A DNA stretch of 63,774 bases, counting the filler, from Dugesia japonica (Eukaryota), in NCBI GenBank assembly GCA_001938525.1. It is 5 parts of 5 records of this genome, joined end to end, with 100 filler letters (N's around TTAATTAATTAA, not from the genome) between each part and the next. Parts side by side here need not be neighbours in the genome. Positions count along the whole stretch, not along the records: positions 33,642 to 48,958 come from MQRL01545633.1; 4 more parts are not named here. One strand, 5' to 3'. The position numbers were made by a program, and so were the translations under genes. Shown here piece after piece: positions 37,141 to 44,355 of the stretch (positions within the stretch are counted from its first letter, which is position 1; every line of letters starts with the position of its first letter). The notes below the pieces were generated by a model. That model was not told the origin of the DNA and ran no database searches. It was given only the letters and a program-made list of their open reading frames with translations.

Positions 37141-37710
37141 ACAATAGTTAGCTAATGATCACAGTATGACACAGTTAACCAACGTGTTACAGTAAACTAA
37201 TGTGCAACAGTGAAACTGATGGTTACAGTAAAGCCTATGTGTTACAGTAAAATCAGTGTAATACAGTAAAGTCAATCCATAGCATACTTAAGACCTGATC
37301 GAATCAAATTGTTCAAGTAAATTATTTGATTTATTACTAACTTCTCAAATTAATCTATAATTCTCAATTCATCAAGTTCAATCATTCACACATTATTTTC
37401 CTTAAGTAATGTGTAATTTGTAACTATTCATATATAAAATTCCCAACACCTATGAATAGATTGTAGACATCAATAAGCAAAAGATCACCCCCATACGTGC
37501 AAAATATGGTAAACTATGTAAACTATAAATTTTAAAAACATTCCACAGAGTTTAGCAACAGAAAGTCAGTAAATACAGTAAACAAGTAGATATAGTAACC
37601 AAATGGGTACAGAAAACCGATGTAATACAGTGTAACCCATGAGTTTCAGTAAACTGATGGATAGAGAAGACAAATAAGATTCCCAAAACCAATGTCACAC
37701 AGTAAAGGAA
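37141..37710. repeat. Two arrays of a degenerate 17-19 bp ACAGTAAA-core tandem repeat
   Basis: Units such as ACAGTAAACTAATGTGCA and ACAGTGAAACTGATGGTT at about 37160-37275 and 37545-37710. Confidence 0.8.
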
Positions 37711-37955
37711 CTACATCATTAGTGTCACTCAAATATTTGCCAGCCTTATCAACTACCTTCAGTTTAATATACAATAAAGTATCATTCAAATCTAAATATT
37801 CAGTTTGAGATCCATTTAAATAAAATTCTATATCGCTTTGTGGTTCCGAAATTGAATTCATTGGAAACACATCTTAAAATACAGAATTTTCAATAACTGC
37901 TTGGGGTGATGGAAGATCAGAAATACATATCATTCAGTTTTACCACAAATGATTT
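37705..37955 (-). pseudogene. Maverick major capsid (double jelly-roll, PY/hexon) N-terminus, truncated
   Basis: DLPSPQAVIENSVF*DVFPMNSISEPQSDIEFYLNGSQTEYLDLNDTLLYIKLKVV matches the Polinton MCP pattern P.Q..IE...P...IEF...Y.DL..T.LY. Confidence 0.85.
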
Positions 37956-38393
37956 TCAAAAATGGTTCCATGTCCGTTCATTTGTTTGTTAATACGTGAT
38001 GCATTTGATTTTTTACGCTTTTTAATAATTGTTTGAGGTTGCTTTGTTATCATATTATTTATTTCTGATAGAATCATATTTGTTATACTAAATGGTAACA
38101 TGTTTGTTACTTTAGGAATCATATTAGTTACTCCACTAGGTAACGAAGACACTACATCCCGACGTTCTGCCAGTGCATTAGATTTCAATGTTGGTAATAT
38201 TTTCCATTATTAATTATACTATCTTGAGCAGTTTTCATACATAAACTACCAATACGTTTAATTGTTCGCAGGAAATTGTTCGCAGGAAATTGTTCGCAAT
38301 CAGACGGAACCATAGTGTTTTCTTACAAAGTAAGGCAATTCTCCACCTGCTTGGCTATTACTTTACAATGATATATTATCAGGATTAGACATT
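37950..38393 (-). pseudogene. Small Maverick core-like ORF preceding the major capsid
   Basis: QAGGELPYFVRKHYGS at the N-terminus, a basic KKRKK tail, and frameshifts. Confidence 0.65.
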
Positions 38394-39365
38394 AGGTTTT
38401 TCTAAAATGTAAAGTTAAATGTGTTTTTGAATCTTTTGGGAACTTGATTAATTTTCCGTTAGCATCATGAATATTAATTTCTATATTGTATTACTTCATC
38501 AGTTTCATGTTTTTCTATTCATACCGATTTCAAAAGAGGAACTTTAACATTTCCTACAATTATAGGTTCAACAATACTACTATATATGAACATTTGTTGA
38601 TGTTACTTAATTATTTATGGCTTACTAATACATTACAATATTAAAATTTTAATTCTGAATGTGAATATTTATTTTTTCTAACCCCAATATTTTTGCCAAG
38701 AATTTATCGAATGTAACAGTTTGGATATCATTTCTTAGTGACATTTGAAATAAATTATTTCATTTCAGACTAATTGTATGCAATAGTTCAAAACCATTTT
38801 ACTTAATTAAATATTTACTTAATTTTTTAATTTCCGTTATGTGTAATTCATCTTCAAACTGTTTAGTATGATAACCTACTTGAGTATATTCTATTTTAAA
38901 TTTTACATATTCAATTATCATATCTTCTTTAAATGCTGTATACAGAATAGGAGGATATCCGGTTTCCATTTGGTTAATCTTATATGAGAACCTTAATCTA
39001 TTGCAATGATTTCATTTTCAAATATGGCAACATATGAGTATTCTTATTTAATATTTAAATAACCACTAAACGCTATATAGATATTATTATTTTCATTTTT
39101 ACTTACACTCAAAGATTGTTTGTGATCAATTGTAACAGTTATTTCATTTGATATATTTTTTGTAGACATGTATTGAATTTTAGACTTCATATATAATGGA
39201 AATATTTGATTTACAAAAGTAAAATCTAACGATGCTACTTCCAAACTGCGATATATATAAATCGAATTTTAAAGCTTCACAAAGAATTTACTAGCATTAT
39301 TATTTGGATGAATACAAGAAACGCTATTACTAGGTAAACGTGTATAGAAATTATTTGATATCCAT
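38388..39365 (-). pseudogene. Maverick minor capsid (penton, PX)
   Basis: N-terminal FYTRLPSNS...PNNNASKF...EVASL and C-terminal MFIYSSIVEPIIVGNVKVPLL...IEINIHDANGKLIKF..THLTLHFRK. Confidence 0.85.
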
Positions 39366-39419
39366 GTAATTTTACATAATATTGTTTATTTATTGTTTAT
39401 AATTATTGTTCTTTTTTAC

Positions 39420-41759: not shown

Positions 41760-42410
41760 TTGTTTTTCTTTTTCTTTCAATCCCAAAGTTGCGTTGTTTC
41801 CCAAACGCGAATTATAGAGATTTTTATTGTATATCAAGCCTGATTTCATTTATTTGCTCTGTGACTTTTATAATCTAAGTTAATGTTGAAACCATTTAAT
41901 ACTTTTATTCTATCTTCTTCATAAAGCTCGTTTGCTATAGTTGGTGTATTAAGATTAAACAATTTTACTAAAGTATGCAATAAGAAACTTATATTTTTTA
42001 ATGAATCCATATTGAAATCTAGATTTTGCACGCTTTCTTCTTTTCTTAATAATACCAAACTATCTAAAAATTGAATTTCCATCAAGGCGTGTAAACCAGC
42101 TTTAGGTGTATTCTTCAACTGATGTCCATCGAGTAATACCTCATTGTTCGGAATCTCTGCAAAAGCATCCATGAACACATCGAGATTGTAAACATTCTTC
42201 AGATTTTTTGCTTTGTTTGCTTTACTTTCGCTTAAAAATCAATATAATTTAAGCTTACGTATTTGTTCATTGTATTTACATCAAGTGATGAAAGAATTTT
42301 CAGAATTTTGGATTGAACCATTTTTTTCGTATTCATTTTAAATCTCTTCATTATCGCGGCCACAAATATTAATATTTTTAATCATTTCTTCTTGATTCAA
42401 TGATAATGTA
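41760..42410 (-). pseudogene. Unidentified Maverick-internal ORF remnant
   Basis: Abutting ORF pieces 41846-42178 and 41643-41849 lie on the same strand as the core genes. No recognised motif. Confidence 0.45.
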
Positions 42411-42829
42411 TTTATTTTGCTCCTATTTTAAAAGTAATGATTAATTTTCGAAAATCATGAATTTATATACATATTTGTGTGTATGCACGAATGTATGTAA
42501 TAATAATAATTAATCTCATTGGTTAAAAATGGAAATAATTTTGATTGGGTGTTAAAACCTATATATTCTTATTACAATTAACAAATCATTTATTTTTTCA
42601 AAATGTGTTATTAATTTTTTGGAAAATTAATAGATGTTGAAGACGATTATCAAAATGAAGAAGTCCAGCCAAATTTAAAATATGATGAAAAACAATGGCC
42701 TACAACAAAAATATTTTGAAGACACTGTAAGATATTTTATAATAATTTATTTAGAAAATAATTGATTTAGAAAATATTGAATCTGATGTACAAATGGTAG
42801 AGAAAGCAGAGCTGACGAAAAGGATAGAC

Positions 42830-43450
42830 CAGTGGTCTCAAACTCAAGATTTCTCTTGGGCCGCATTAGACCAAATTCGTTAGTCAGTGGGTCGCATTAC
42901 TATCATAACTCACTGTAACAATTTCTTCCGTTGTATACAACGCTATTAGTAATATTATTACGTATTATAATATCATATAATTATATTTTATTGTATTTAT
43001 TAGTTTTTTAATCTTAACAACAATTTATTATTGAATGAATTAATCATTTTCACCTATTTCATTTGGCCGAAATTCTTCATTATTATTTCATTTTATTATT
43101 CATTTTATATGTTTAAGACATTTAGTAGGCTAATTATTGGAAATCAAAGAAATATTATTCTAAAAGAAATAAAATAACCAATTAAACATTTATTCTAATA
43201 AATCTGATAAACATTTTTATTAAACTTTATTATTTCGAACATTCGTCACTCTGACTACTAAGTTGACAGCGTTTTGCCTTTACCAGAGAATCAACATTGG
43301 GCTTGATGTCATGTGATACAGCCAGTCGTAAGGTTGCCAGCAAATGTTCATCTGTGGTCTTCGACCGCAGAACAGATTTGTTAATTCTAATTGATAAAAA
43401 GAATTGTTCGCACAATTTATGTGCTACCAAACATTGACATCATCTTGGTA
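42830..43450 (-). mobile_element. hAT (Charlie/SPIN/Buster-type) 3' fragment inserted in the Maverick
   Basis: End CAGTGGTCTCAAACTC, and an ORF CEQFF..INKS.LRSK.TDEHL..LRLA...PNVD.LV..KRCQ.S matching the hAT dimerisation domain. Confidence 0.85.
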
Positions 43451-43984
43451 CACATATACTATACTACAGACCTTTTAGAAAAATCTAAAAATACATTCGA
43501 TAAAGGTTAGATTTAATTTAATTTGAATTATATTATTTTCTTTTAGATTTGTTCATAGAAATACTGGGACTTCTTTATTGCTGTCTTAGAGACAATATAC
43601 ATTATTGTGCACCAGAATTGATTTAGTGCAAAACAAAACAGATGACTGGTGTAGATATAAAAAACGTGATGAATATATCCAACGAATATCATAAAGAAGA
43701 TATTGATTGGGAATATTTTTCTGTAAGGAAGGAAGAAAGATTTGAAAAGAAAATTTATCGACTCTGTATCCTGAATCTAATAAAAGACAATCTTAAAAAA
43801 TTTATATCAATTAATTTAGTTATTTATTAAATAAATGTTAATTTATATTTTAATTTATTTATTCTTTATTACTGTATTAAATACTTTACATACAATTTTT
43901 AAAAAAATTAAATAAATAAAAAAAATTTTTTTTTAAAGAAAAACATAAGCAAAATAAAAAAAGAAAATAAAAATACATAAAAAA

Positions 43985-44355
43985 TAAAGTCTGTGCGGGG
44001 AAATCAATTATTAAATCTGCTGGATGATAGTTGCCATGAAAATAACTTTGACCTACTTTTATTTGATCTTGAAATATTCTACCAATCAGATCGCAGGATA
44101 CTTTATCACTTTCACCTTAAACCACTTCAACCAAGCAGATCGCATGATACTATATCAATTTGGGCTTGGAAATATTTCGACCAATCAGAATAGAGTATAC
44201 TGTATCAGTTTGACCTTAAAAATTCGACCTTCATAATTTTCACCAATCAGAATTCAGTAAATTAGATCAAGGACCAATCACAAACAAGTATACTTTATCA
44301 GTGACCTTGAAAAACTAAGATCTTGGGGGGTGGTACAGTGATCTAGTATCTACCT
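43985..44355. repeat. Putative Maverick right terminus with CCAATCAG and TGACCTT subrepeats
   Basis: Reverse-complement homologue of 48319-48725, ending CAGTGATCTAGTATCTACCT. Confidence 0.75.

Follow-up and report, generated by a model that had tools for sequence, protein, structure and literature searches.

The stretch at 37705-44355 raises the question of whether it holds an endogenous virus of a possibly undescribed lineage, as a first-pass annotation had proposed, or an element of a known kind. The window, by which we mean the whole stretch of DNA that was analysed (63,774 nt), consists of five scaffolds with 100-nt spacers, and the element's own scaffold occupies 33642-48958. We find that the 6.7-kb stretch holds the broken remains of six Polinton (Maverick) genes, in the gene order of intact metagenome relatives, and conclude with high confidence that it is a one-ended, broken Polinton/Maverick (adintovirus-type) copy, predicted to be inert. 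The features assigned on its scaffold are the following.

33645..33815, plus strand: C-terminal half of another GG.F-tail ORF, isolated at the scaffold start; third copy (E down to 1e-13, profile iE 9.3e-14)
37703..37933, minus strand: start of the major capsid gene (PY), double jelly-roll; first fifth, with one stop, ending near 37705
37955..38386, minus strand: core-like small ORF, broken, between penton and major capsid; PW position by synteny
38395..39361, minus strand: penton (minor capsid protein, PX), broken; only both ends align, 126-129 of 340-352 residues
39431..40306, minus strand: rve/DDE integrase, broken (E down to 4e-61)
40119..40355, minus strand: remnant of a small Met-Gly-start ORF, overlapping the integrase 5' end
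40421..40739, minus strand: GG.F-tail ORF, broken; PZ position by synteny (profile iE 4.9e-14)
40795..40971, minus strand: small basic ORF, assigned by position and composition only; PM position in vertebrate Mavericks
40994..41448, minus strand: packaging ATPase, residues ~61-211 only, with one stop and one frame switch (E down to 3e-47)
41506..41539, no strand: dispersed host repeat piece, 34 nt, where the ATPase 5' part is expected
41749..42409, minus strand: broken gene of no known function, likely accessory to the element; two intact relatives
42830..43780, minus strand: probable nested hAT-type DNA transposon fragment, ~1 kb, inner boundary approximate
43895..44361, minus strand: surviving end, a degraded terminal repeat; outer end at ~44358-44361, four subterminal repeat units ~50 nt apart
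48313..48784, plus strand: second Polinton-type end, starting AGTAGT and running into the scaffold end; separate copy

The Met-Gly-start ORF remnant was absent from the gene list of the first-pass annotation, and the loss of ATPase residues 1-60, the host repeat, the hAT-type insert, the second end, the third piece and the five-scaffold make-up of the window likewise go beyond it.

The identification comes from intact relatives. We fetched 47 related loci and used ORFs from all of them as tblastn queries; with these 372 ORFs, the window yielded 215 HSPs at E<=1e-3 and the reversed window none, and the relatives' genes mapped to 37703-41448 on the minus strand. Read along this strand, the order is packaging ATPase, GG.F-tail ORF, rve integrase, penton, core-like ORF and major capsid start, which is also found in 7 of the 47 loci, these being all 7 that hold an ATPase. 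The seven minus-strand pieces of the first-pass annotation are confirmed in place and order, and it rightly saw an endogenous Maverick/Polinton whose virion module is collinear, both identity and order matching intact relatives. Every core gene of the element carries stops or frame switches. A direct Pfam scan of 14 window ORFs gave no match at cut-off (rve had an E of 0.021, below it), and the gene names were assigned through the intact relatives, the fragments themselves matching Pfam weakly.

Over 56 aa, the capsid fragment is 71% identical to its relative P0001 and 70% to P0004. Fold predictions were made on the relatives' proteins, through which the window fragments are identified by sequence. 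The model of the P0004 capsid (pLDDT 77) matches the PBCV-1 capsid (E 9e-16) as well as iridovirus and Sputnik capsids; a PDB sequence search with P0004 gave 0 hits, and the relative P0009 has a sub-threshold DJR-like Pfam match. The modelled penton of locus L001 (pLDDT 81) matches the mavirus penton (Z 13.8, rmsd 7.9, 240 aligned) and a Sputnik chain (Z 13.5). Through these models, the capsid-like pieces proposed earlier do lead to jelly-roll folds, a double jelly-roll and a penton. The core-like ORF reaches an E of 1e-14 with L003, with seven stops in a single-frame HSP, and contains a 14-nt tandem repeat (array at 38260-38298); related ORFs occur in 33 locus sequences.

The integrase remnant spans 284 of the 348 residues of the L007 integrase, with four stops and three frame switches; in what we take to be its acidic triad, the first motif is unreadable and the later two are kept. 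A relative's integrase lies above the Pfam rve cut-off (E 9.7e-13). The overlapping Met-Gly-start ORF was recovered by tblastn with L003 (E 6e-5) and by a profile from 5 loci (iE 5.5e-7). The GG.F-tail ORF is 33-51% identical to its relatives and has two stops and one frame switch against L001. L001 and L007 also have small basic ORFs at the same position as that of 40795-40971, for which a profile built from one sequence found no match in the window. The ATPase remnant is 56-68% identical to the L001 and L007 ATPases, and the profile covers positions 66-211 of 211; residues 1-60, including the P-loop region, are missing from the window copy. A relative's ATPase passes the Pox_A32 Pfam cut-off (E 1.8e-6). 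The repeat piece at 41506-41539 matches window positions 23372, 53521 and 1791 at 94% over 31-34 nt.

At the other side, the element breaks off sharply within the capsid gene: 84 of 152 HSPs end at 37706 or 37703, the profile stops at position 84 of 427, and the gene is cut near residue 82. Four HSPs from distant capsids extend to 37547-37577 at 28-31% identity, which we read as over-extension. In profile searches of the window, neither the remainder of the capsid gene nor an adenain-type protease was found with profiles built from the relatives, the best match to a 3-sequence pPolB profile had an iE of 0.15, and a TBP profile gave nothing. The expected place of both polymerase and protease is beyond the break: in the relatives both lie beyond the capsid gene, with polymerase-like ORFs of 1100-1300 aa on the opposite strand in 3 of the 47 loci (L001, L007 and L011) and an adenain-motif ORF in 16. 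The first-pass annotation had noted that pPolB and the protease were not visible and placed their presumed loss at about 37705, which agrees with these searches and fits the layout of the relatives. The name pPolB follows from size, position and motifs read by eye, because Pfam matched only an Endonuclease_7 insert, and Pfam support for the relatives' protease is weak (Peptidase_C5, E 0.025, below cut-off, for L007; none for L001).

The scaffold holds at least three Polinton pieces within 15 kb, and its ends fall in Polinton sequence. The surviving end is identical to 48335-48784 at 329 of 412 aligned nt (80%), with a local score of 170, where 200 shuffles reached at most 41 and 96 other stretches of the window at most 52. 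A subterminal motif was found in the window only at 44181-44293 and 48390-48576, and the second end holds 4 of the 6 window matches, with 0.04 expected. The piece at 33645-33815 is identical to the element's own GG.F-tail ORF at 112 of 166 nt. We considered whether the ends at 44360 and 48313, 4 kb apart, could be the two repeats of one element and rejected this pairing, since they face each other outer side to outer side and are only 80% alike. The pieces at 48313-48784 and 33645-33815 are likely separate insertions of related families.

How new the element is depends on what has been catalogued. It is quite possible, if somewhat doubtful, that Repbase already contains its family, of which the element would be an old copy; examples would be Polinton-1_SM and Polinton-2_SM of Schmidtea mediterranea and the Maverick families of Dugesia. 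A flatworm host is likely: among the named relatives of CFAP96 in the window, that of Macrostomum lignano comes closest (54%, rank 3 of 44), although this gene sits on a different scaffold from the element. PMC4028283 Table S1 lists four Polintons of 11.6-15.9 kb from S. mediterranea (Polinton-1_SM, Polinton-2_SM, Polinton1_SM and Polinton2_SM), 2 of the 4 having capsid, penton, ATPase and protease, and Maverick expansions are reported in Dugesia. Against a single known family stands the divergence of the three scaffold pieces, which differ by 20-33% in DNA, and the host therefore has several families or very old copies.

A distinctly improbable alternative is that the structured end and the ORF at 41749-42409 belong to a different repeat that lies beside the Polinton genes by chance. 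Neither matches any of the 47 related loci, tblastn with the ORFs of these loci gave no match in 41700-44400, and foreign inserts separate both from the ATPase. One of these inserts carries a single motif at 42830 that we take to be a hAT-like end, and its ORF at 43230-43439 presumably resembles a hAT transposase C-terminus; this ORF had 0 hits in Pfam and in PDB. Yet variable accessory genes sit upstream of the ATPase in the relatives. The ORF that the first-pass annotation had left as unknown proved to be a real gene remnant, with intact relatives in 2 of 14 candidates (P0131, 69%; P0132, 57%), both aligning over 42409-41749. It has no Pfam match at cut-off, and an atlas search placed neither this ORF nor that at 47604-48239 in a firm family, recognition being low for both. 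The structured terminus seen earlier is likewise borne out, at ~44360 with its four subterminal units; the terminal motif has 0 matches in viral_contigs. Since none of the 47 loci matches it, this end is tied to the element by its position and by the end motif of the partner copy only. Mavericks end in terminal inverted repeats some hundred nt long, with (AGT)2 or (AG)3 at the tips (PMC8097293), and the partner end at 48313 starts with the former and measures ~450-470 nt, near the mean of vertebrate Maverick terminal repeats (402 +/- 276 nt; PMC8097293).

We give very little credence to a non-autonomous deletion derivative, moved as a unit with the integrase and polymerase of a helper: such Polintons exist (N1 entries, PMC4028283 Table S1) and the retained part is contiguous from one end, but no second end lies near 37705, the subterminal motif being absent there, and its 80% sister is in the wrong orientation for a partner. 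An assembly chimera, a contaminating organism or a free virus is just as implausible. In its favour, the assembly is fragmented, scaffold ends fall in Polinton sequence and the best sequencing run has only 0.41 of the sampled words of 37000-46900; against it, 37400-44500 contains no N, the GC of the element (26%) is similar to that of its flanks, heavy decay and nested host repeats are at odds with a free virus, and the share exceeds 0.2 in 10 of the 24 listed runs (4 studies, all coded as one organism), element and flank not being distinguished by these words. The share is below 0.2 in 10 of the 20 rows that contain such words, and no RNA run is among the listed runs that hold these words.

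A broken, one-ended Polinton thus remains the reading that we favour. Judging from the relatives and the family, its ancestor would have been a linear DNA of at least 13-14 kb that was copied by its own protein-primed polymerase and inserted into the germ line by the rve integrase. Its double jelly-roll capsid protein and penton likely formed an icosahedral particle, which the ATPase would have filled and an adenain-type protease matured. Once inserted, the element likely lost the half with the protease, the polymerase and the other end through a deletion or rearrangement at ~37705, and would have acquired host repeats and point mutations later.

In the capsid tree, the element groups with a clade from metagenome or read assemblies, whose looked-up members come without a host name. 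The window is placed there by 56 residues, the nearest neighbours were chosen by likeness to the same fragment, no named Polinton is included and 44 of 198 candidate capsids were dropped for length beforehand; on these sequences, the tree shows a clade, not its rank among known groups. Capsids of this clade measure ~400-420 aa, against ~430-440 aa for most of the more distant hits, and among 75 pattern matches in viral_contigs none was confirmed as a capsid relative. It is conceivable, but rather unlikely, that the copy provides the first host anchor, in a free-living flatworm, for a short-capsid polintovirus clade otherwise known only from such assemblies. This same tentative reading would ascribe to the clade intact members that are 60-70% identical to this copy, a one-strand virion module and a Met-Gly-start gene overlapping the integrase, and to some members a TBP-like gene, a ubiquitin-conjugating gene or doubled pentons. 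Host anchoring is the only novel angle of the locus. Were it true, planarians would become a tractable system in which to study whether particles are formed by animal Polintons, a question that PMC8097293 treats as still open; planarian Polintons are described as piRNA targets that are de-repressed on knockdown of the PIWI protein SMEDWI-2 (PMC8532177). The broken copy does not itself test the virion question: by prediction it is unable to replicate, integrate or build a particle. As one of many decayed Polinton copies in animal genomes it has little weight by itself, and modest value as a marker linking a likely flatworm host with a clade of intact elements.

The novelty suggested by the first-pass annotation is not supported by comparison with known systems. 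Fossils of this kind are already on record from flatworms, the likely host group, and the element is an ordinary one; its gene set and most of its gene order are standard for Mavericks (PMC8097293 section 7). The S. mediterranea Polintons and Dugesia Mavericks, likely of the same host group, have the same gene classes, as compared by catalogue description only; unlike the catalogued planarian Polintons, the element is broken and half of it is missing. Alpha and Beta adintoviruses are told apart by PolB class and by PLA2X versus GasderminX/Cupiennin accessory genes (PMC8502044), and one supplement file of that paper contains none of six flatworm names.

The closest likeness is to the metagenome relatives, of which L001, L003, L006, L007, L015, L016 and L019 have the same gene order and strand. 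These relatives are 45-73% identical to the element in the ATPase and integrase segments, and P0001 and P0004-P0008 are 61-71% identical in the capsid fragment. They have open frames, whereas the window copy is broken, and some carry a TBP-like gene, a ubiquitin-conjugating gene or two pentons, which it lacks. Like animal Polintons/Mavericks (Polintoviricetes; adintoviruses, PMC8502044), the element combines an rve integrase with an A32-type packaging ATPase, and its penton lies one gene before the double jelly-roll capsid gene, as in Polintons/Mavericks (PMC4028283). Its ATPase and integrase blocks share one strand, and in relatives the polymerase is found at the far end on the other strand, whereas in most vertebrate Mavericks polymerase and ATPase share a strand and face the other block (PMC8097293). 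That other block, which runs integrase-penton-small ORF-capsid-protease in vertebrate Mavericks, is alike in the element, and so is its state of preservation, 96% of the vertebrate loci surveyed being fossils (PMC8097293).

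A Pfam scan of 14 window ORFs brought none to the cut-off (rve E 0.021), the element's fragments being too short for Pfam. Its unbroken 56-aa capsid fragment led to 11 relatives among 17 candidates (top identity 71%), whose alignment was used to fetch 47 metagenome loci. The 372 ORFs of these loci, used as tblastn queries, gave 215 HSPs in the window and 0 in the reversed window, bearing out the ordered minus-strand virion gene set of the first-pass annotation as real and correctly named. This analysis shows which genes these are, how they are ordered and that they have decayed; only 6 of the 215 HSPs fell outside the element, every one on a second GG.F-tail piece (33642-33815).

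Features of the element and window; the six genes from ATPase to capsid were placed by tblastn with locus ORFs
42409-41749, minus: broken gene between end and ATPase; two intact, uncharacterized relatives
41448-40994, minus: packaging ATPase
40739-40421, minus: GG.F-tail ORF
40306-39431, minus: integrase
39361-38395, minus: penton
38386-37955, minus: core-like ORF
37930-37703, minus: major capsid start
1786-1855, 23370-23439, 41504-41573 (in the ATPase region; repeat piece 41506-41539), 52962-53001, 53521-53552: five copies of a short dispersed host repeat
8269-8368, 17589-17688, 33542-33641, 48959-49058: 100-nt spacers, all four of one sequence (a 12-nt word with stops in all frames, flanked on each side by N44)

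The six-gene order is common to 7 of the 47 loci, namely every locus holding an ATPase. Beyond the capsid gene, loci L001 and L007 carry a small protease-like ORF and, farther on and on the opposite strand, a polymerase-like ORF (1134 and 1298 aa, respectively). The L001 ATPase and integrase pass the Pox_A32 and rve cut-offs of Pfam. The first-pass annotation had staked its capsid calls on jelly-roll matches, and structure models of intact relatives support them: that of capsid relative P0004 (pLDDT 77) matches PBCV-1, iridovirus and Sputnik capsids (E 1e-15 to 1e-13), and that of the L001 penton (pLDDT 81, pTM 0.51) is closest to the mavirus penton (Z 13.8, rmsd 7.9, 240 aligned), followed by Sputnik (13.5) and PBCV-1 (13.4) chains, with unrelated structures at 6.3 or less and a second comparison in agreement. 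The best viral-library match of P0004 was a Cotesia sesamiae bracovirus protein (24%); a Polinton from this bracovirus is included in Table S1 of PMC4028283. Names of the small ORFs come from their places alone, which are those of PZ, PM and PW in vertebrate Mavericks (PMC8097293).

Several loci carry further genes. A TBP-like gene is present in 6 of 47 (L001 2175-2621, Pfam TBP E 2e-17; L007 2420-2869; L006, L019, L020, L028), and such genes are mentioned for MELD viruses in PMC8502044. L007 encodes a ubiquitin-conjugating (E2) protein (222-719, minus; UQ_con E 1.7e-12), and three of 47 loci hold two tandem penton genes each (L005, L007 at 5616-7687, L010). A small Met-Gly-start ORF with an S.CC motif overlaps the integrase start (L003 3700-3954, L004, L006, L007 4536-4733, L010), with a remnant in the window (40119-40355); judged by sequence, its product is a candidate myristoylated virion protein. 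The polymerase-like ORFs of L001 (9122-12526) and L007 (10209-14105) contain an Endonuclease_7-like insert; bioRxiv 10.1101/2023.08.22.554363 and PMC11161782 describe polymerases of Polintons with homing-endonuclease inserts. Behind the polymerase gene of L011 (6642-7482), at the contig end, lies a GC-rich ORF together with a long stretch of poly-A, which may be a chimeric join.

Compared with L007, the integrase is interrupted by four stops and changes frame three times, the GG.F-tail ORF has three stops and one frame switch, the ATPase one of each, the penton four stops within its aligned third and the capsid piece one stop; against L003 and L001, the core-like ORF has seven stops. The ATPase profile matches at positions 66-211 only, and the first integrase acidic motif is unreadable while the later two, which we take to belong to the catalytic triad, are retained. 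The capsid break is sharp, with 84 of 152 HSPs ending at 37706 or 37703 and the profile stopping at position 84 of 427; four distant capsids align weakly past it, to about 37550. Protease, polymerase and TBP profiles found no match in the whole window, consistent with the reported absence of pPolB and protease from an element whose capsid gene stops at 37706/37703. Left of the break lie a C/A-rich, strongly skewed stretch (35600-36300) and an 18-19 nt tandem array (37171-37270), which may belong to a further repeat that made the break or came to fill it.

The structured terminus was likewise recovered, at about 44360, with four repeat units. A plus-strand sister end (48313-48784) shares 329 of 412 aligned nt with it; their alignment scores 170, against highest scores of 41 for 200 shuffles and 52 for 96 other window stretches. 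The two are not one element's pair, since their outer sides face each other across 3.95 kb of host DNA. Neither matches the 47 loci or viral contigs, so the link between end and genes is inferred. The insert between end and ATPase is, by resemblance, probably a hAT-type transposon, with a single hAT-like end motif at 42830; it has no match in Pfam or PDB. Between the two ends lies a long host-like ORF (47601-48240, minus) lacking a Pfam match, which the protein atlas leans towards HEAT/ARM repeats at low recognition.

The surroundings are AT-rich animal DNA (14-36% GC per kb). Because the window joins five scaffolds, neighbourhood across spacers is not real; the element's scaffold (33642-48958) has no N letters in 37400-44500. 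The host genes in other parts encode a TRAF/MATH protein, CFAP96 and a protein kinase, besides a PDZ exon. Among named relatives of CFAP96, the best match comes from Macrostomum lignano (54%, rank 3 of 44), ahead of mollusc and brachiopod proteins at 47-51% and schistosome ones at 39-40%. The host is likely to be a free-living flatworm; AT richness and TRAF expansion would make a planarian plausible. This intronless CFAP96 has an inverted partial duplicate directly upstream (9224-9402 and 10255-10433, 92% over 179 nt). Two minus-strand mariner/Tc1-type transposase fragments (28623-29021, HTH_48 E 9.5e-14; 32914-33258, weak) and a fold-back repeat of ~590 nt (46886-47471; related piece 45146-45258) were also seen. 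Part of 37000-46900 is present in 20 of the 24 sequencing runs listed (one coded organism; best share 0.41).

A phmmer search started from the L001 capsid recovered 4475 representatives at E<=0.001 and 236 at 1e-30. A FastTree tree was built from the window fragment and 154 full-length capsids, taken from 198 candidates. The fragment, 56 residues long and compared with neighbours picked by likeness to it and without a named reference, falls into a 7-tip group with P0001 and P0004-P0008 (support 1.0), itself part of a 43-tip short-capsid clade (support 1.0). Cluster annotations of the capsid relatives (sets of 10, 2 and 10) read 'hypothetical protein' or are empty, with no host name. That the fossil gives this polintovirus clade its first host anchor, a free-living flatworm, is rather unlikely. 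That it is a copy of a catalogued planarian Polinton family is a serious possibility, if short of an even chance. Four Schmidtea mediterranea Polintons appear in Table S1 of PMC4028283, planarian Polintons are described as piRNA targets (PMC8532177) and expansions of Mavericks are reported in Dugesia (bioRxiv 10.64898/2025.12.11.693146). The family could already be in the Dugesia repeat library or the nematode paper's host table; further context is given in PMC6431247, PMC2836005 and bioRxiv 10.64898/2026.01.28.702291.

Polintons are described as replicating by protein priming, inserting through their integrase, which leaves a 6-bp duplication, and probably forming an icosahedral particle (PMC4028283, PMC11161782); the ancestral element, judging from its relatives and the family, would have shared all three traits. 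The present copy, once inserted, would have lost the half beyond 37705 and later taken up nested insertions and point mutations. By prediction it is inert, and it may be a piRNA source. Set against known systems, the element is a real, correctly named and ordinary Polinton, at best another member of a known group. The sister end, which begins just upstream of the ORF at 47601-48240, opens with AGTAGT, the commonest Maverick end in vertebrates (PMC8097293).
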